Shown: positions 54,539 to 64,000, numbered from the stretch's first letter. The stretch is 64,000 nucleotides of DNA from Armatimonadota bacterium (GCA_041690135.1 JAWLHY010000001.1:352001-416000), one strand, 5' to 3'. The notes: generated by a model not told the origin, from the letters alone. Numbers and translations are program-made.

Positions 54539-56242
54539 ATGAGACATTTGGTCAAGCTGGTAATGGCCGTGGCCCTGCTCGGGACGGGCTGGCCGCTGGT
54601 CCGCCCCTGGATCCCCTCGGGGCCGCTCCCGGCCGCCGTACCCGCGGCAGGTACTTCCGCCGTGGTGCCGGGCCAGATCGTGGTCGACGCCCGCGACAGC
54701 CTCTCCGACGCGGACCTCGACGCGCTCGACCGCAAGTACGGGGTCGACTTCCGCCTCAACAGCGTCCACGCGGATGACGAGAACCTCCTCATCGCCGACG
54801 TGACCCCCGGCACCGAGGCCGCCCTGCTGGAGCGCCTGCGGAAGGACCCGGCGGTCGAGGCGGCGGAGCCGATGCACCGCTACTCGATCAACTGGACCCC
54901 CAACGATCCCCGTTTCAAGGAGCAGTGGAACCTGAAGCTGATCGGCGCCGAGAAGGCCTGGGACAAGACCCGCGGCAAGGGCGTGGTCGTGGCGGTGATC
55001 GATACCGGCGTCGCCTTCGAGAACGACGACAAGTGCTACCGCGCCCGCGACTTCGGCGAGACGAAGTTCACGAAGGGCTACGATTTCGTCAACGACGACG
55101 AGCACCCCAACGACGACCACGGGCACGGCACGCATGTCTCGGGGACCATCGCCGAAACCACCAACAATGCGGAAGGCGTGGCGGGCCTGGCGTTCGAAGC
55201 CACGATCATGCCGATCAAGGTACTCAACGAGTTCGGCGGGGGGACCTCGGCCGATATCGCCGACGCCATCCGCTGGGCGGCGGACAACGGCGCCCACATC
55301 ATCAACATGAGCCTGGGCGGCTCCATGCCGGACATGGCGATGCGGATGGCCTGCCGCTACGCCGCCAAGAAAGGCGTGCTCATCGTGTGCGCCGCGGGCA
55401 ACAGCGGCGGCGGCCCCGTGGGCTACCCGGCCGCCTTCCCGGAATGCTTCGCGGTGTCCGCGGTCGGCCCGTCCGGTAAGCTCGCCCGCTACTCTTCCGT
55501 CGGCAAGCAGGTCGGCATCGCGGCGCCCGGCGGCGATAAGAGCACCGGCGAGAACGACGGCATCCTCCAGAACACGGTGCTGTTCGACACCGGCCAGCGG
55601 GAAGACGACTACTTCTCCTTCCAGGGAACGTCGATGGCCAGCCCGCACGTCGCCGCGGCGGCCGCCCTCGCGATGTCGATGGGCGTGAAGGACGCGGCGG
55701 AGGTGAAGCAGCTCCTCCAGCGCGCCGCCACCCCGCAGAAGCCCGCCGAGCATTACGGCGCCGGGGTATTGAACGCGGAGAAGACGGTCGCCCTCGCCGA
55801 GGATGCCCGCCGCGATTCCTTCTGGAAGCTGATCTTCTCGCTGGCGGTCGGCCTCGCTGGGCTGGGCGTGGGCGCGGTCCGCGGCCGCGTGGGAGGGTTG
55901 CTCCGCTTCCCGTTCGCGCCGCTGGGGCTGCTGCTCGGCTTCTGGGGCCCGGACCTGGTGTTCCACTGGATCGGCTTCGGCTCGCCGTTCAACATCCTGC
56001 TCCACAGCGCCCTGATCCCGCTCTACCTGCTGTGGGAAGCGGAGAGCAAGCCGGTCTACCGCTTCGTGGGGACCATCTCCCTCGGGGTGGCGCTCCACCT
56101 GGCCTGGGACGCCTGGCAGGCCCACGCCCCATTCGTGGGCGTCCTGCCGATGCACGCCGCGCCCTGGCTCTACGTCAACGCTGCCGTCGGCGTGGGCGTG
56201 GCCCTCGTAGCCTGGGCCCGCTCCTTCCGAGCAGCGGACTGA
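54539..56242 (+). CDS. S8 subtilase with C-terminal multi-TM membrane domain
   Basis: VAVIDTG / HGTHVSG / GTSMASPH triad; ~5 hydrophobic helices at the C-terminus. Confidence 0.93.
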   Translation: MRHLVKLVMAVALLGTGWPLVRPWIPSGPLPAAVPAAGTSAVVPGQIVVDARDSLSDADLDALDRKYGVDFRLNSVHADDENLLIADVTPGTEAALLERLRKDPAVEAAEPMHRYSINWTPNDPRFKEQWNLKLIGAEKAWDKTRGKGVVVAVIDTGVAFENDDKCYRARDFGETKFTKGYDFVNDDEHPNDDHGHGTHVSGTIAETTNNAEGVAGLAFEATIMPIKVLNEFGGGTSADIADAIRWAADNGAHIINMSLGGSMPDMAMRMACRYAAKKGVLIVCAAGNSGGGPVGYPAAFPECFAVSAVGPSGKLARYSSVGKQVGIAAPGGDKSTGENDGILQNTVLFDTGQREDDYFSFQGTSMASPHVAAAAALAMSMGVKDAAEVKQLLQRAATPQKPAEHYGAGVLNAEKTVALAEDARRDSFWKLIFSLAVGLAGLGVGAVRGRVGGLLRFPFAPLGLLLGFWGPDLVFHWIGFGSPFNILLHSALIPLYLLWEAESKPVYRFVGTISLGVALHLAWDAWQAHAPFVGVLPMHAAPWLYVNAAVGVGVALVAWARSFRAAD

Positions 56243-57931: not shown

Positions 57932-58357
57932 CTACTTTTCGGCATCCGCTTCGAGCGAGCCGTGGCCTCCCGCGCGGCCCGCCCACCCCTGGAGTGGCTG
58001 GAGTTGTCTTAATCGCTCCGGCGTAGTGGCCAGGCGTTCCAGGCGCACCAGCAGGGCTTCGATCTCCAGCGTGTTGGCGCCGTAGAGCACCGGGTCGGGG
58101 TTCTCCTGGTCCCGTGCGTGTACGTGCTGGCGGTCGCGCAGCAGCAGGAGTGCCAGCAGGAGCTTTCGGTTAGCCTCCCAGTCTTCCGGATGCTCCAGTA
58201 CCGCCGCGCGTGCGGAATCGGCGGCAGCCTGCGCCTTTACCATCACCATGTTGCTCGCGGGTGAGTAGGGGGGGCGGGACGGCAGTGTCCACACTCGTAT
58301 CAGGGTTCCTACCCCCAACACACATACAGCCATTCCCAGAAACCAGGCCCGGTGCAT
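57932..58357 (-). CDS. Hypothetical protein with N-terminal membrane anchor
   Basis: GGAGG SD, hydrophobic N-terminus, TPR-like helix (LEHPEDWEANRKL). Confidence 0.55.
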   Translation of the reverse strand: MHRAWFLGMAVCVLGVGTLIRVWTLPSRPPYSPASNMVMVKAQAAADSARAAVLEHPEDWEANRKLLLALLLLRDRQHVHARDQENPDPVLYGANTLEIEALLVRLERLATTPERLRQLQPLQGWAGRAGGHGSLEADAEK

Positions 58358-58579: not shown

Positions 58580-59452
58580 ATGCTGCGCCTGAAAGACATT
58601 CCGCCGGAAGAGATGCCCGAAGTCGTGCGGGTCGCCAACGAGCTGTACGAGAAGGACCGCCGTCGCGCGGAGCAGGACCAGGAGCGCCGCAACTACGTGG
58701 ATGCCGCCGAAGAGCTCGGCGTACCCCCGGAGTACATGGAGCAAGCCGCGCAGGAGCTGCACCGCCGCCGCGTGGCGGAAGCCGAGGTTAAGAACCGGAG
58801 TAAGGTCTGGAAGTCGGTCGCCATCGGCGGGGGAGTGGGGGTGCTCACCGTCTTCCTGATGATGGGGATGTTCACCGTGCGGAGCGTCGAGACCGTGCCG
58901 GCTACGCCGGTTCAGCAGGTGGCGCAGGCACAGCCGGAGTTCCTCACCCAGGTAGCCCCCGAGACCTTCGATGCCGGCGCCGCCAACCGATGGACCTTCA
59001 CGATGAACCCGTCCACGCGGGCCACCACCACTTTTGAGGAGGAGGAGGGCCTGAGGCGTGGCGTCGCCGTGATCCGGGTGGAGCAGTTCGGCACGACCGG
59101 CGGACCCCACCGCGCCAACTTCGAGAGCATCCAAACCCCTCCCAGCCTGGCCGGGAAGAAGGAAATCCAGTTTGACCTGCGGGGCCAGGGATTAAAGAAC
59201 ATCCGGGTCTACCTGGAACGCGGCCAGAACGAGCGGTGGCGCTCGCCGGAATTGAAGATTCCCTCCGGCTGGCAATCGGTCCGCGTGCCGCTGGGCAACT
59301 TCCAGCACCAGGTCCACTCTGGAGGTCGCTGGCGCACCCGGGGCCGGGTACGTCCGGACCAGATCGACCGCGTCTCCTTCAAGCTGGGCGACTTCATGAA
59401 TGAGCCCAGTGCGAAGGGCGAGGTCCGGCTCGACAACGTCCGGTTCGAATGA
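58580..59452 (+). CDS. Single-TM protein with helical N-terminus and C-terminal CBM11/CIA30-like beta-sandwich
   Basis: AAEELGVPPEY helix, TM, IQFDLRG...WQSVRVPLGNF...VRLDNVRF; TATAAT at 58542-58547; ATGA overlap with the next gene. Confidence 0.75.
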   Translation: MLRLKDIPPEEMPEVVRVANELYEKDRRRAEQDQERRNYVDAAEELGVPPEYMEQAAQELHRRRVAEAEVKNRSKVWKSVAIGGGVGVLTVFLMMGMFTVRSVETVPATPVQQVAQAQPEFLTQVAPETFDAGAANRWTFTMNPSTRATTTFEEEEGLRRGVAVIRVEQFGTTGGPHRANFESIQTPPSLAGKKEIQFDLRGQGLKNIRVYLERGQNERWRSPELKIPSGWQSVRVPLGNFQHQVHSGGRWRTRGRVRPDQIDRVSFKLGDFMNEPSAKGEVRLDNVRFE

Positions 59453-61086
59453 GCCGGATCCGCTCTTCTGAGTGGGTCGCCCGCGTGGGCCCTGGAGACG
59501 GCCGAGCCCGCCTGGAGGCGGCTCTCGGTCCGGCGAGTGAGCTCCACTGCGGTCCCGGCTGGACCCTCGGACTCCGGACAGGCCCCGGAGAGCCCTGCCG
59601 GATAGGGGAAGTAGAGAGTGGTTTCGAGGTCCGCCTGGGCTACCCGGCGTGGTCGGGGAGTAATGTCCGGACCGACTCTACCGTTCCCGCTCTCCAGGCC
59701 CAGGGAGATCCGTTCGGGCTGTGCCCCGTCTACTATCGGTCCGCGGGCGGGGCGGGGGAGTGCGGCTCGTCGCTGGCGGTACTGCGGGCGGGAGACCGGA
59801 GTGCCTCCGCGCTGGACCCGGCGGCGCTGCACGGTTACCTCTGCTTCTCGCACGTGCCGGCGCCGCTCACACTGTTCGCGGGGTGCCGGACCGTGCCGGC
59901 CGGGGACCTCCTGCGGCTCACTCCCGGCGGCGTGGAGTTGGAGAGCGTTCCTCGCTGGACGGAGCGCGAGCCCCGGACCGCCGACCTCCCCGTCCTGGCG
60001 GCAGAGCTCCGGGAGCACCTGCGGAGGGCGGTCCGGCAGCAGTTGGGGGAAGAACGCGAGGCGGCGGTTTTCCTCTCGGGCGGTCTGGACAGCAGCCTGG
60101 TCGCGGCGCTCCTCGTGGAAGCCGGGATCCGGGTTCATCTCTTCACGCTCGACTTCGGTCCCCCGTGGGATGCGGAGCTGCCCCTGGCGCGGCAGGTGGC
60201 GGAGCACCTCGGTCGACCGCTGCATGGGGTCCCCGCTCGCGGGAAGGAGATCGCCGGCGCCCTGGAGCCGACCGCCGCCGCGCTGGAGCAGCCGTTCGGG
60301 GATGCGGTCACCGTGCCGCTCTACCTCCTCGGTCGAGCCGCCGCGCAGCACTGCTTTCTGGCGTTCAATGGGGAGGGTGGGGATCAGCTCTTCGGCGGCT
60401 GGACCAACAAGCCAATGATCGCGGCGGAGCTGTACGCCGGAGAGGGCTACGACCGCGTCGGCGCCTACCTGCAAACCTACCACCGCTTCTGGGGACGGAC
60501 GGAATCCCTTTACACCCGCCCCACGCGAGAGCGGGCCGCGCGCTGCGATCCGGCGGAGTGGGTGCGTCCGGCGCTGGAGGCTCCCGGATTCCGCTGCCTG
60601 CTGCACCGCCTGCGCGCGGCGAATCTGTGGCTGAAGGGGGCCCAGAACATCGCGCCGCGTTCCGTCCAACTCGCCGCCGTTCACGGCCTGCGCCTCCGGT
60701 CCCCCTTCTTCGATCCCGCTTTGACGGAGTGGACCTTTTCCCTGCCGCCGGAGGTGTTCTTGCAAGGCGCGTGTGAAAAGTACCTCCTGAAACGCGTGGC
60801 CGAGGCCTATCTTCCGGAGGAGGTCGTCTGGCGGGAGAAGCGCGGGATGGGCGTCCCCGCCTCGGACTGGTGCCTGGGACCCCTCAAGCGGCAGGTCGGA
60901 CACTACCTGCACCCGCGCCGCTTGAAGCGGGACGGCCTGTTCGAGCCGGCGTTCGTGGAAGCGCTCCGCCGCGGGCAGGATCAACCCGGCGAGTTCCGCT
61001 CGCGCCGCCTGGGCGAAAAGCTGTGGCTCCTGCTGATGCTGCACGCATGGGTCGAAGTGCACGGGATCCCCCTGGCGTTGCCTTGA
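59449..61086 (+). CDS. Asparagine synthetase-like (AsnB family) ATP-dependent amide ligase lacking the glutaminase Cys
   Basis: DPFGLCPVYY, PP-loop FLSGGLDSS, NGEGGDQLFGG, RSPFFD, EKYLLKR, REKRG. Confidence 0.88.
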   Translation: MSRIRSSEWVARVGPGDGRARLEAALGPASELHCGPGWTLGLRTGPGEPCRIGEVESGFEVRLGYPAWSGSNVRTDSTVPALQAQGDPFGLCPVYYRSAGGAGECGSSLAVLRAGDRSASALDPAALHGYLCFSHVPAPLTLFAGCRTVPAGDLLRLTPGGVELESVPRWTEREPRTADLPVLAAELREHLRRAVRQQLGEEREAAVFLSGGLDSSLVAALLVEAGIRVHLFTLDFGPPWDAELPLARQVAEHLGRPLHGVPARGKEIAGALEPTAAALEQPFGDAVTVPLYLLGRAAAQHCFLAFNGEGGDQLFGGWTNKPMIAAELYAGEGYDRVGAYLQTYHRFWGRTESLYTRPTRERAARCDPAEWVRPALEAPGFRCLLHRLRAANLWLKGAQNIAPRSVQLAAVHGLRLRSPFFDPALTEWTFSLPPEVFLQGACEKYLLKRVAEAYLPEEVVWREKRGMGVPASDWCLGPLKRQVGHYLHPRRLKRDGLFEPAFVEALRRGQDQPGEFRSRRLGEKLWLLLMLHAWVEVHGIPLALP

Positions 61087-61295
61087 GAGAGGAAGCATTC
61101 ATGCCCGCGAGCTTGCCCGTATGGGAACACACTGAAAGGCGCGGAAGAAGGCGAGCAATGCCCAAGTCTGCGGGTTTCCCGAGTGGAGCAAGGCACTTAC
61201 GCTGGTAAATCAATATCGTGGGAGTTTACGGAGGTAGAAACGCAGATGAGAAAATCGGGAATGTTTCGCGTTTTTCGCACTTTCGCGATTTCGTG

Positions 61296-61781
61296 ATGGC
61301 CCGCGCAGCGGTCGAGTCGGAAGCGGCCGAATTGGCTCCGCCGACACCTGTAAGGGCGGCTGAGAAGGCTGCGAGGCAAGATGCCGGGCAGGCTTTAGAC
61401 ACTGCCCGTGCGCTCGACCGTGCCCGGTACATCATCCGGGGCCGCTGGTACCGGGAGCGAATGGCAGCCGCCATGGCCATCCATGCGCGCATCAAATTGG
61501 TGACGAGTTGTATCCTGGGAGCGGGGATCCTGGCAACGATTTCCATCCCAGTGACCGTACCGGACTACGTTTTCCTAATTGCCCAGTATGTAGTTTGGAT
61601 CCCCTTGCTGTTCTTCGTGGCAGCGGTGCTGGCTGATCGCCTGGCTCGGATCTTGACGAAGGCTGCCGTCCGGCGCGTTCGAAACGCCGCGAGGAGTGAA
61701 GGTTTTGATATCGATAATCATGCCACCTATCCCTGGGAACGGGATGCCGCGAGAAGTAAGTGGATCGATTCCGGCTTTTGA
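61296..61781 (+). CDS. Hypothetical two-TM protein
   Basis: Two hydrophobic helices; lower GC than neighbours; start uncertain because the 5' end overlaps a repeat. Confidence 0.5.
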   Translation: MARAAVESEAAELAPPTPVRAAEKAARQDAGQALDTARALDRARYIIRGRWYRERMAAAMAIHARIKLVTSCILGAGILATISIPVTVPDYVFLIAQYVVWIPLLFFVAAVLADRLARILTKAAVRRVRNAARSEGFDIDNHATYPWERDAARSKWIDSGF

Positions 61782-61886
61782 ACGACTGATAATTCATCAC
61801 GGAGTGCTGATTGCCCACCCAATTGATCTGACCACCGGCGGGCGAGACGCCCGCGCTCCTAAAGCCCAACACCCGAACTCCTGACC

Positions 61887-63023
61887 ATGAAATGCATCCA
61901 CTGCAACACCGACTCGACTTATAAGGACCGGCAGGCGAACGACGGCCGGTGCAAGCAGTGCCGGCACCCCTTCGCCTTCGATCCCCGGGCCAACCCCGAA
62001 CACAAGATGTCGGATGGGCTCTTCCAGCGGGCGATCCTGGAGGTTTCCGAGAAGGGAACCCTATCGTTCACCGAAACGCAGCTCTACTACGAGGTCTGTC
62101 GCCGCCTGGACAAGAAGTTGAGCTGGTCCATGAACACCACCGGTGGGGTGCTGGCGGGTTTTGGTGGGTTCGGGGGTGTCGTGGCCTCCATCGTGATGGG
62201 GTCCTTCTGGCCCCTGTTCCTGATCAGTGCTCCCGCGCTGGTGGCGGGCATCGCTGTGAGCCGGATGAAGCCGAAGCAGTCGGTCCGCACACCGCCCCTG
62301 GAGTTACACGGCTTCCACGCCACCTACATGAAGCGGTGGGAAGAAGTCCACGGCGCGCCGGAGCGCCTGATGCGGTCGGCGGCGCCGGCGCCTCGGGCGG
62401 CACCCGGCGGGCCGGATCCCGTGGCCGGAGAGCCGGATCTGACGGCCTACAGCTTCGACCGGGCTCTGGTGACCCAATCGGCCGACCTGGCCGCGGCGCT
62501 GGTGGCCAACAACTTCCACTTCGAGAACAACTGCGCCATCCTGAGCCTCGACGGCTATCCCTTCGACCGCCGGGATACGATCCTGACGATGCTCCGCCGC
62601 AACCCGAGCCTCAAGGTGTTTGCCCTCCACGACGCATCTCCCCGTGGGTGTGAAATGGTCCACGCCCTCCGTGCCTCCACCTGGTTCCCCGAAACGACCG
62701 TCCAGATCATCGACCTGGGTCTGCGTCCCGCGCACGTGATGAAGAGCCGGATGTACGCGCACCAGGCCGCGGCGGGTGGGTTGACCCCCCAGTTGCGCAG
62801 CTACCTGCAAGGGGACGAGCTGGAGTGGCTTGACTCCGGCAAGGTCGCCTCGGTGCAGCAGTTCCGCCCGGCCCGCCTGATGCGCTCCATCTACCAGGGG
62901 TTCGCCCGCGCCAACCAGATGGGAGCCGACGGGTCGGTGGGGGACGCCGGCGTCGGCGACCCCGGCTTCATCTGGATCCACACCCCGATGGCGGACGTGT
63001 ATGCGGCGGACAGCTTCGGTTAG
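61887..63023 (+). CDS. Zn-ribbon, two-TM protein with Spo11/TopoVI-A-like CAP and TOPRIM motifs
   Basis: CIHC...CKQC; FTETQLYY; TM hairpin; NNFHFENNCAILSLDGYP, FALHDASPRG, IDLGLRP. Confidence 0.7.
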   Translation: MKCIHCNTDSTYKDRQANDGRCKQCRHPFAFDPRANPEHKMSDGLFQRAILEVSEKGTLSFTETQLYYEVCRRLDKKLSWSMNTTGGVLAGFGGFGGVVASIVMGSFWPLFLISAPALVAGIAVSRMKPKQSVRTPPLELHGFHATYMKRWEEVHGAPERLMRSAAPAPRAAPGGPDPVAGEPDLTAYSFDRALVTQSADLAAALVANNFHFENNCAILSLDGYPFDRRDTILTMLRRNPSLKVFALHDASPRGCEMVHALRASTWFPETTVQIIDLGLRPAHVMKSRMYAHQAAAGGLTPQLRSYLQGDELEWLDSGKVASVQQFRPARLMRSIYQGFARANQMGADGSVGDAGVGDPGFIWIHTPMADVYAADSFG

Positions 63024-64000
63024 ATGAAGAGTTTCGTCGGCGTCTACGGCGCTCCGGATCCTGCCGAAGCCTTGAGAAGAGCCGGTCACCCGGTGGGGTG
63101 GTCCGATGCCGAGGTGGCCTTCTCGGGGGCGGAGACCTGGGTCAGCCCGGACGGGGACCTGGTCGTAGCCGGGAAAGCGGTCCTCGATCCCCACGACGGC
63201 ACCCCGGGCGACCTGGCCTGTCCACGGACCTCTCCCTTCGAGCATTTCGGCGAGCTCTATCGCCGGTACGGACTGCAGGCTGCCCGCCACGCGCTCGGGA
63301 TGTTCGCCCTGGCCGTGTGGGACTGCCGGAGCCGCGAACTCCACCTCTTCCGGGATGCGACCGGGGCTCGCACCCTCTATCACGCGCAGCAGGGCCGGGA
63401 GTGCTGGTTCAGCACCCGGCTCCGGGTGCTGCGGCGCAGCCCGGCAGTCTCCGGGGAGCTCTCGCTTCCGGCGCTGCGGGCTTACCTGGCCCTGGCCTAT
63501 GTGCCGGGCGAGCTCACCATGTGGAAGGATGCCCGCGAGCTGCGCCCCGGGACGCTCCTCACACTCCCTTCCGGCCGGGTCACGACCTATTGGGAGCCCG
63601 AGGAAAGGGAGCCTGCCGAGGGGGAGACGCTGGAAAGCTGCGCCGGGCGGCTGCGTCCCCTGCTGGAGGAGTGCGTCCGGGTGCGCCTCCCGGCCAACGA
63701 AACCGAGCCCGTGGGGATCTATCTCTCCGGGGGGCTGGACAGCAGCCTGGTCGTGGCGCTGGCGGCGCGCCTCCACCGGGGGCCGGTACACACGTACGCC
63801 ATCCACTTCGGCCACGAATACCCGAACGAGCTCGTATTTTCCGACATGGTGGCCCGGCACTGCGGCACCCGTCATCAGGTGCTGGAGCTGCCGGCGCGGC
63901 TGATCCGCGACATGCTGGCGGAAACCCTGGCGGAGCTGGACGACCCGATTGGCGATCCTCTCACCGTGCCCAACTACCTGCTCGGCCAGGCCGCCCGGAT
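63024..64000 (+). CDS. Second AsnB-like amide ligase (truncated by the window end)
   Basis: Own translation: MKSFVGVYG..., GMFALAVWD, RDATGARTLY, IYLSGGLDSS, LDDPIGDPLTVPNY; ATG directly after the previous TAG. Confidence 0.88.
   Translation, partial: MKSFVGVYGAPDPAEALRRAGHPVGWSDAEVAFSGAETWVSPDGDLVVAGKAVLDPHDGTPGDLACPRTSPFEHFGELYRRYGLQAARHALGMFALAVWDCRSRELHLFRDATGARTLYHAQQGRECWFSTRLRVLRRSPAVSGELSLPALRAYLALAYVPGELTMWKDARELRPGTLLTLPSGRVTTYWEPEEREPAEGETLESCAGRLRPLLEECVRVRLPANETEPVGIYLSGGLDSSLVVALAARLHRGPVHTYAIHFGHEYPNELVFSDMVARHCGTRHQVLELPARLIRDMLAETLAELDDPIGDPLTVPNYLLGQAAR

Follow-up and report, generated by a model that had tools for sequence, protein, structure and literature searches.

Lasso peptide cyclases are glutaminase-less homologs of AsnB that make an isopeptide bond after adenylating the carboxylate of a peptide. 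In LysW, a small soluble amino-group carrier, the acidic C-terminal tail is loaded via an amide bond by an ATP-grasp ligase. For the nitrile synthetase PesC, as well as for TsrC and ScdTA, an ATP-dependent step has been described that adenylates a peptide's C-terminal carboxylate and is followed by the attack of a nitrogen nucleophile; in the same account, they take their ammonia from glutamine, and their substrates are small precursor peptides of ribosomal origin within clusters for RiPPs (peptides made on the ribosome and modified after translation) (PMC13060819). Here, we describe a gene cassette from an Armatimonadota genome that combines two AsnB-like ligases with a membrane protein of a topoisomerase-related fold. 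It lies at the end of a stretch of 64,000 nucleotides (G000:C1:352001-416000), hereafter the window; positions past 64000 continue the window numbering and are called window-equivalent. The genes are named A, B, C, D, and E in the 5′ to 3′ order, and all of them are on the plus strand. The conserved core comprises B, D, and E, usually accompanied by a single-pass membrane protein (A or X) and a lineage-specific accessory gene. A membrane-associated modification of a protein or peptide, which was already suspected in the preliminary description of the locus, appears to be the best reading of the cassette, strengthened by the near-invariant Phe-Gly terminus of the D protein.

Gene B (59449-61086, 545 amino acids (aa)) encodes AsnB-like ligase 1, and gene E, which spans 63024-64000 within the window and reaches window-equivalent 64712, encodes AsnB-like ligase 2 of 562 aa. 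Between them lies gene D (61887-63023, 378 aa), whose product consists of a zinc ribbon, a membrane hairpin, a Toprim-like domain, and a conserved tail. The first gene, A (58580-59452, 290 aa), encodes a transmembrane (TM) protein with a CBM11/CIA30-like domain. As read in the sequence, the stop codon of A and the start codon of B share the tetranucleotide ATGA at 59449-59452, and the stop codon of D abuts the start codon of E (TAG|ATG, 63021-63026). The five co-directional open reading frames (ORFs) and both coupling junctions were found where the preliminary description had placed them, and E indeed runs beyond the window, as had been supposed. The extent of the cluster had to be revised: the listed genes are there, but the cassette goes on past the window with a conserved cupin gene that directly follows E (approximately 64721-65389, window-equivalent).

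The distribution of the cassette was studied by scanning one genome per GTDB species, which gave at least 406 loci with D; the best 80 of them were analysed, with taxa given as labelled in the records. Gene content was established by tblastn with the window proteins and by all-against-all clustering of ORFs of at least 60 aa; ORFs were called mechanically, and the N-terminal extensions seen in high-G+C loci are artefacts. These 80 loci are labelled as Cyanobacteriota (57), Armatimonadota (10), Gemmatimonadota (5), Chloroflexota (3), Poribacteria (2), Actinomycetota (1, a single metagenome-assembled genome (MAG)), and Acidobacteriota (1), with one more bearing no label. Two layouts prevail. In type 1, found in Armatimonadota and Gemmatimonadota among others, the order is A-B-D-E, with the cupin gene behind E in 11 of the 80 foreign loci; overlaps between start and stop codons are frequent, and there is almost no intergenic space in the operon. 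Loci from Poribacteria, Dehalococcoidia, and Anaerolineales contain B-D-E alone. In type 2, characteristic of cyanobacteria and a Blastocatellia MAG, the order is X-B-(LysA-like)-D, while E is convergent downstream or located elsewhere.

B is situated upstream of D in 61 of the 63 foreign loci whose upstream flank reaches 5 kb or more. Where this flank reaches 6.5 kb or more, 51 of 59 loci contain A or X; E falls within the locus in 22 of the 38 cases with full 8-kb flanks. Five genomes without E (or without both B and E) near D were inspected, and all five bear an ortholog of E elsewhere (639-983 bits). A LysA-like gene accompanies the core in 58 of the 80 loci, and orthologs of A were found in 14 of the 80 foreign loci. 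Within the phylum of the window, the orthologs of D and E occur in the identical 3 of 41 genomes (G000, G006, and G018), and D is present in 37 of the 201 sampled cyanobacterial genomes, 34 of which have matches with E-values below 1e-60. What flanks the core differs from locus to locus and frequently consists of housekeeping genes (citrate synthase, RNase P and tRNAs, phycobilisome linkers). In five Nostocales loci (e.g., L037:9942-11186, minus strand), an AbiEii-like AAA_21/AAA_15 ATPase gene separates D from E, and DUF29 occupies this place in L046.

Because the arrangement recurs across phyla, it is far beyond chance, and the cassette is a real co-inherited unit. Co-occurrence in other genomes had been chosen beforehand as the observation on which the proposal should stand or fall, and the genes do co-occur, as seen from the position of B, from the E orthologs encoded elsewhere, and from the identical set of genomes with D and E. 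The other expectation, that the cluster would match no characterised pathway, also held: the cassette is undescribed in Pfam, NCBIfam, PADLOC, and the full-text literature searched, the coverage of the latter being incomplete and without supplements.

Both ligases are readily recognized by the Pfam Asn_synthase model (E-values of 9e-64 for B and 4.8e-73 for E). Neither starts with Met-Cys, and the N-terminal Cys nucleophile is also missing in 75/75 B-type and 54/54 E-type ORFs from other loci, so that the glutaminase deficiency, first noted for the window proteins, extends over 129 further ORFs; a Met-Cys-Gly start is found in four of the nine other AsnB paralogs of the same genome. The PP-loop S-G-G-x-D-S and the N-G-E-G-x-D motif are invariant in the alignments of both families; in B, the PP-loop S210-G-G-x-D-S215 and N-G-E-G-x-D are unchanged across 22 sequences, and the E alignment (A3) shows a mean column identity of 58% across phyla. 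Since these motifs are invariant, the synthetase halves of B and E look alive.

At the same time, no NCBIfam model reaches its cut-off for B or E. The best score is that of E with the AsnB model TIGR01536 (230.7 bits, and 166.2 bits for B, vs. a cut-off of 267.1), an amidotransferase of the XrtA/PEP-CTERM system is among the best neighbours (173 and 224 bits, far under its cut-off), and the scores are still lower with the models for lasso cyclases (NF033535, 56.3 and 132.1 bits vs. 525) and macrolactam cyclases (NF033561, 80 and 88 bits vs. 300). The nearest solved structure is that of the hydroxyamidotransferase TsnB9 (7ylz), with E-values of 6.5e-43 for the E family and 7.3e-31 for the B family, followed by AsnB, CarA, and beta-lactam synthetase, down to E-values of 6e-19 and 3.5e-11, respectively; these relatives are AS-like enzymes that form amides. 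In a tree built from 60 sequences (25 rows of B, 26 rows of E, and other paralogs of this genome), B and E each form a clade with 100% support, and the two clades are sisters at 96%, apart from the other AsnB paralogs of the genome. Both clades show the same deep split, with cyanobacteria and the Blastocatellia MAG on one side and all others on the other. Judging by the family scores, B and E belong to the asparagine-synthetase (AS) superfamily without falling into AsnB, the lasso cyclases, or any other subfamily for which a model exists. An irregular E ortholog was met in the Phormidesmis MAG of locus L032, where the profile matches it in two overlapping pieces (G248:C2:944899-946558, profile positions 10-436 and 427-558) and may be frameshifted; D in this genome keeps its Phe-Gly end.

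Protein D has a composite architecture. In the AlphaFold model, built together with 24 relatives (predicted local distance difference test (pLDDT) score of 81.8), a zinc ribbon is followed by a helical hairpin, a C-terminal alpha/beta domain, and a tail. The zinc ribbon (residues 1-30, 61887..61976) contains four Cys residues, C3, C6, C22, and C25; the quartet is present in 87 of the 88 family sequences from the loci, on which all the residue counts for D are based, and is invariant in alignment A1. The membrane hairpin (residues 86-127, 62142..62267) comprises two helices, with hydrophobic segments at 86-104 and 109-127 according to hydropathy and helices 63-104 and 108-126 in the model. With an even number of helices, two TM segments in this protein, both soluble parts of D, the flexible tail included, should be on the same side of the membrane, presumably in the cytoplasm. 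For the family as a whole, the same-side arrangement is a presumption: a crude hydropathy scan, which counted from one to three segments per homolog, marked two or three in longer cyanobacterial homologs and only one in two others, and one cyanobacterial sequence, when read by eye, suggests four TM segments, more than the scan had marked.

The Toprim-like domain of D (residues 163-344, 62373..62918) has a topoisomerase VI-A-type fold with a remodelled site. It superimposes on the topoisomerase VI-A Toprim with Z of 11.9 and a root-mean-square deviation of 3.9 over 159 residues (9o0g_A) and with Z of 11.8 (1d3y_B), and Foldseek gives an E-value of 4.9e-4 for the model against the same domain; JetD of the Wadjet system comes next among the structural matches (Z 9.6 and 8.7). 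The Pfam family TOP6A-Spo11_Toprim (PF21180) is hit below its threshold by D itself (18.2 vs. 24.1 bits), and the threshold was passed by three of the eight relatives scanned (40.5, 28.9, and 28.9 bits). Structural matches are confined to residues 163-363 of the model, residues 1-162 being modelled as the zinc ribbon, helices, and membrane hairpin; no 5Y-CAP/winged-helix part with a catalytic Tyr was detected in D, the N-terminal part not having been searched on its own. Among the 88 sequences, the Toprim Glu (E213, 88/88) is invariant together with H211, H248, D276, D191, and an S-F-D stretch, which is followed by Arg in 87/88. In the DxD motif, the first position is occupied by Asp in 69 sequences, Asn in 18, and Ala in one; at the second, Asp survives in a single sequence and is replaced in 87/88 (Ser 66, Asn 10, Thr 9, Ala 2).

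Since only the Toprim half is matched and 87/88 sequences have another residue in place of the second Asp of DxD, D is, as far as can be judged from its fold and residues, a remodelled Toprim protein, not a Spo11-like DNA-cleaving enzyme. Thus, of the earlier assignment of D as a membrane protein similar to TopoVI-A/Spo11, the Toprim fold and the membrane hairpin are retained, but the DxD metal motif is lost and the CAP part was not detected. No model in Pfam, NCBIfam, or PADLOC gives an above-threshold match to D, and almost all source names shown for the family read “hypothetical protein”. The family is large: an exhaustive profile search recovered 1,657, 1,140, and 466 representatives (at 50% identity) with E-values up to 1e-3, 1e-10, and 1e-30, respectively, and more than 1,173 proteins were found by a word-indexed search.

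The C-terminal tail of D (residues 349-378, 62931..63020), acidic and Gly-rich, ends with Asp-Ser-Phe-Gly-COOH and is predicted to be disordered (pLDDT below 50). The linker part of the tail is of variable length, acidic, and Gly/Ser-rich, while Phe(−2)-Gly(−1) terminates 87 of the 88 D sequences from the loci, the exception being a truncated ORF. The same terminus is found in 361 of 379 D proteins retrieved from databases in three sets (119/120, 120/120, and 122/139), and 6 of the 17 exceptions in the last, diverse set still end in Gly. Tandem copies of D beside a single B were found in 7 of the 80 loci (L041, L046, L052, L066, L072, L074, and L082), all of them cyanobacterial. A search for a separate precursor peptide revealed no small ORF (20-70 aa) with conservation outside a single cyanobacterial family.

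Based on these features, the following mechanism may be proposed. Both ligases would work at the cytoplasmic face of the membrane, B beside A or X and E beside D, where, at the expense of ATP, they would adenylate a carboxylate and couple it to an amine with a source other than glutamine. The most likely carboxylate would be that of the near-invariant terminal Gly in the tail of D itself. In that case, D would double as scaffold and substrate, or else be a carrier, akin to the C-termini of RiPPs that are amidated or nitrilated by AS-like enzymes, and the presence of two ligases would correspond to two successive ATP-dependent steps. The Toprim-like domain would serve as a ligand-binding or hydrolytic module, not a DNA-cleaving one, and the outer CBM-like domain of A may couple the system to the cell envelope.

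The adenylation of the C-terminal Gly carboxylate of D by the ligases is put forward as a tentative proposal, one possibility among several. The terminal Gly is favoured because it belongs to the sole universal feature of the tail, position −4 being Asp, Glu, or Gln; because no separate precursor gene is conserved; because the seven loci with tandem D have one B; and because the AS-like enzymes PesC, TsrC, and ScdTA adenylate peptide C-termini (PMC13060819). More specifically, D might be a membrane-anchored carrier or acceptor whose Gly, once adenylated by the glutaminase-less ligases, is joined to an amine, for example that of an amino acid, of a lipid head group, or of a second protein. Such a conjugation of a protein tail would be PP-loop-based instead of E1-like, ATP-grasp, or glutamine-synthetase-like, with the Toprim-like domain as a releasing or reading module; in this specific form, the idea seems improbable.

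Several observations weigh against the tail of D as a substrate. Position −4 is not always acidic (Asp in 46, Glu in 31, and Gln in 9 of 88 sequences); this variation makes a side-chain reaction unlikely and leaves the alpha-carboxylate as the only target shared by all. A role of the tail in docking or sorting would fit equally well. E is often encoded apart from D in Nostocales, and no fused forms of D were found among longer proteins (663-2000 aa), which is weak evidence; a Pfam scan of long D-family members revealed no informative extra domain. The invariant Glu/His/His/Asp set of the Toprim-like domain suggests that D has an activity of its own, for which the proposed mechanism gives no explanation. 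Finally, the two lineage-specific accessory proteins, a 3-His cupin and a LysA-like protein devoid of the lysine that binds pyridoxal phosphate (PLP), hint at a small-molecule ligand.

The cupin is conserved with a mean identity of 60% across phyla and bears conserved His residues (3-His); it has no close characterised relative, its best match in the PDB being a generic cupin (E-value 5e-9). Its cyanobacterial counterpart in the cassette is a LysA paralog that scores 234-249 bits with TIGR01048, against a cut-off of 297.9, while a canonical lysA is present elsewhere in the same genome (470-500 bits). In all seven cassette paralogs aligned with two canonical LysA proteins, the PLP lysine is changed to Val, and other conserved positions differ too; in the consensus of 53 sequences, the stretch at this position is conserved. 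The LysA-like protein is therefore no functional PLP decarboxylase; more probably, it does no more than bind a ligand. The idea that it supplies a diamine was considered and dropped because the PLP lysine is replaced.

With such accessory proteins, it is possible, albeit doubtful, that the cassette represents a membrane-associated small-molecule pathway, with B and E each contributing an amide (or lactam) bond to a metabolite, for instance a dipeptide-like compound or a modified amino acid, D and A/X acting as scaffolds or regulators, and the cupin or LysA-like protein binding or tailoring the substrate. The nearest solved relatives of the ligases (7ylz, AsnB, CarA, and beta-lactam synthetase) do act on small molecules, the accessory folds are of a metabolite type (the His-conserved cupin and the LysA paralog with 239-249 bits vs. 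297.9), and a conserved precursor peptide gene is absent. However, the LysA-like protein with Val in place of the PLP lysine in 7/7 cases provides no working decarboxylase, the surroundings of the core contain no conserved transporter, further tailoring gene, or regulator, and some loci (Poribacteria, Dehalococcoidia, Anaerolineales) are reduced to just B-D-E. A pathway of this kind also leaves the invariant C-terminus of D unexplained.

The properties of protein A bring the cell envelope into consideration. Its model (pLDDT 82.5) starts with two long helices, the second of which ends in the TM segment, followed by a low-confidence linker and a beta-sandwich; A is thus divided into a cytoplasmic helical N-domain, the TM segment 76-94, and an extracytoplasmic beta-sandwich at about 138-289. 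The C-terminal domain resembles CBM11 (1v0a; Foldseek E-value 1.5e-8, TM-score of 0.73 to the target) and the CIA30 fold of a complex I assembly factor (7zkq_A, E-value 2.7e-6), while the Pfam CIA30 model remains sub-threshold (15.6 bits vs. 24). With one TM segment and this model-based fold match, A agrees with its initial description as a TM protein with a CBM11/CIA30-like domain. Its N-domain is homologous to that of X, a cyanobacterial protein of 207 aa (hhalign probability of 94.9% over 64 columns), but the outer domains of A and X differ.

The ligases could amidate, or add an amine to, the carboxylate of a membrane-bound precursor of the cell wall or a polysaccharide, such as a peptidoglycan stem peptide or a lipid-carried uronic acid, with the CBM-like domain of A reading the product. 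Besides the extracytoplasmic CBM11-like fold, this explanation would account for the fact that the core proteins are all membrane-tethered or encoded beside a membrane protein, for the XrtA/PEP-CTERM-system amidotransferase among the NCBIfam neighbours (173 and 224 bits, far below the cut-off), for the likeness of one accessory protein to a diaminopimelate-binding enzyme, and for a GH2 glycosidase gene located 14 bp after the cupin gene in this genome. We consider it unlikely, nonetheless: no conserved glycosyltransferase, flippase, Mur, or polysaccharide gene adjoins the cassette, the GH2 gene is not conserved in other loci, and it is the cytoplasmic N-domain alone that is conserved in A/X, the outer domain differing between lineages. 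Moreover, B and E cannot use glutamine, unlike the envelope amidotransferases of the AS superfamily, which, to our knowledge, all do so.

Another explanation, less likely again, regards the cassette as a sensor or regulatory complex built largely of retired enzyme folds, which would bind a ligand (an amino acid or a nucleotide) and transmit a signal across the membrane, the use of ATP by the PP-loop being regulatory. It is in line with the four enzyme folds of the cassette that lack a canonical catalytic residue (the glutaminase domains, Toprim, and LysA-like) and with A and D being membrane proteins with cytoplasmic helical or zinc-ribbon domains. The synthetase motifs, however, are invariant across phyla in both B and E, arguing for real catalysis, and Pfam and NCBIfam scans detected no DNA-binding or signalling output domain.

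The weakest of the rivals, an anti-phage defence or stress system with the Toprim-like domain as a nuclease effector, is very improbable even though D resembles JetD of Wadjet (Z 9.6 and 8.7), the cassette is patchy among close relatives (3/41), and a few neighbours are defence-like (the AAA_21 ATPase in the five Nostocales loci, a type I restriction-modification system with Uma2 in L030), since PADLOC matches neither A, C, D, E, the cupin, nor the upstream ORF and gives only a marginal QueC hit for B (16.5 bits, E-value 0.0017), the DxD metal motif is lost in 87/88 D sequences and the CAP/Tyr domain is undetected, the flanks are variable, mostly housekeeping, and not island-like, and the family is kept in 37/201 cyanobacterial genomes with conserved synteny; the defence or stress role once suggested for this locus thus finds no support.

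The spacer between B and D (61087-61886, 800 bp, G+C 0.59) contains ORF C (61218-61781, 187 aa), which encodes two hydrophobic segments and belongs to no family in Pfam, NCBIfam, or PADLOC. A tblastn search found no counterpart of C in the 80 other loci, and C is also missing from G006, a relative from the same family in which the gap between B and D is about 45 bp. In the preliminary description, C was included as a two-TM insert between the ligase and D; its hydrophobic segments are indeed there, but its membership in the conserved cassette is rejected, the insertion being private to this genome. The spacer also holds three stretches of about 45 nt (61102-61151, 61264-61313, and 61828-61874) that match 40 other places of the genome with 81-100% identity and resemble short intergenic repeats of the dispersed kind, flanking ORF C; no internal repeats were found within the spacer, and the repeat stretches show no unusual folding.

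Upstream of the cassette, a 141-aa ORF (57932-58357, minus strand) is divergent to A; a hydrophobic segment lies at its N-terminus, and neither Pfam, NCBIfam, nor PADLOC gave a match for it. Farther upstream, a 567-aa subtilase (54539-56242, plus strand; Peptidase_S8, E-value 1.7e-56) possesses a fervidolysin-like prodomain and, as read by eye, a hydrophobic C-terminal region of about 150 residues, and may be a membrane-embedded or membrane-anchored protease. An Rfam search of eight loci (139,797 bases) at gathering thresholds found RNase P and tRNAs in one flank only and no riboswitch ahead of the cassette. A scan for promoters and terminators was uninformative, with no promoter-like sites and three terminator-like sites vs. 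about five expected by chance. Downstream, the GH2 glycosidase gene (1045 aa, plus strand) occupies window-equivalent 65403-68540 (L003:9403-12540), 14 bp past the cupin gene; it may be co-transcribed with the cupin gene in this genome, but in none of the other 80 loci does it adjoin the cassette. Farther downstream, window-equivalent 69571-72052 holds a divergent pair of genes, namely, a citrate-synthase-like protein with an N-terminal MerR/HTH_17 DNA-binding domain (L003:13571-14797, minus strand), which may be an enzyme-derived regulator, and a canonical citrate synthase (L003:14886-16052, plus strand).

Taken as a whole, the cassette joins a fold of DNA enzymes minus the DNA chemistry, two ligases minus their usual nitrogen source, and a tail whose end is conserved like the ends of ubiquitin-like modifiers. 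It is common, with 1,657 D representatives, a presence in 37/201 cyanobacterial genomes, and loci labelled as seven phyla, yet nearly all source names shown for the D family read “hypothetical protein”. Should the tail of D be the substrate, the cassette would represent a novel way to modify or conjugate bacterial proteins at the C-terminus and a new use of the AS scaffold; should it not be, a membrane-linked pathway is marked by the cassette all the same, in groups of ecological importance such as bloom-forming and nitrogen-fixing cyanobacteria and soil Armatimonadota and Gemmatimonadota. The novelty lies at the level of the cassette, and the chemistry probably reuses the known adenylation of the AS type.

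Among the described systems, topoisomerase VI-A/Spo11 and JetD share with D the Toprim fold of residues 163-344 and the invariant Toprim Glu; unlike topoisomerase VI-A/Spo11, D is membrane-anchored behind a zinc ribbon, with an altered DxD, an undetected 5Y-CAP, and no TopoVI-B, and, unlike Wadjet JetD, it has no JetABC-type partner matched by PADLOC. Lasso and macrolactam cyclases are, like B and E, glutaminase-less homologs of AsnB, but the scores with their models are far below the cut-offs, and no leader peptidase, RiPP recognition element, or precursor gene was found at the cassette loci. The best structural matches, TsnB9 (7ylz), Escherichia coli AsnB (1ct9), CarA (1q15), and beta-lactam synthetase (1jgt), have the same two-domain layout, but the first 50-70 residues of the cassette ligases are unmatched, the N-terminal Cys is absent, and the gene context is entirely different. 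As regards LysW, the partners of D are AS-like, not ATP-grasp enzymes (no ATP-grasp domain appeared in Pfam scans of the cassette or its neighbours), and D, with its 378 aa and its Toprim-like domain, is a membrane protein; by functional analogy, the two have in common a zinc ribbon and a flexible acidic tail with a conserved end. PesC, TsrC, and ScdTA, with which B and E are likened by description only, differ from them in the glutaminase Cys, missing in B and E, and in the substrate, which in the cassette has no conserved precursor and may instead be the tail of a 378-aa membrane protein; they belong to the same AS superfamily, and the PP-loop machinery by which they work is the one kept in both B and E.

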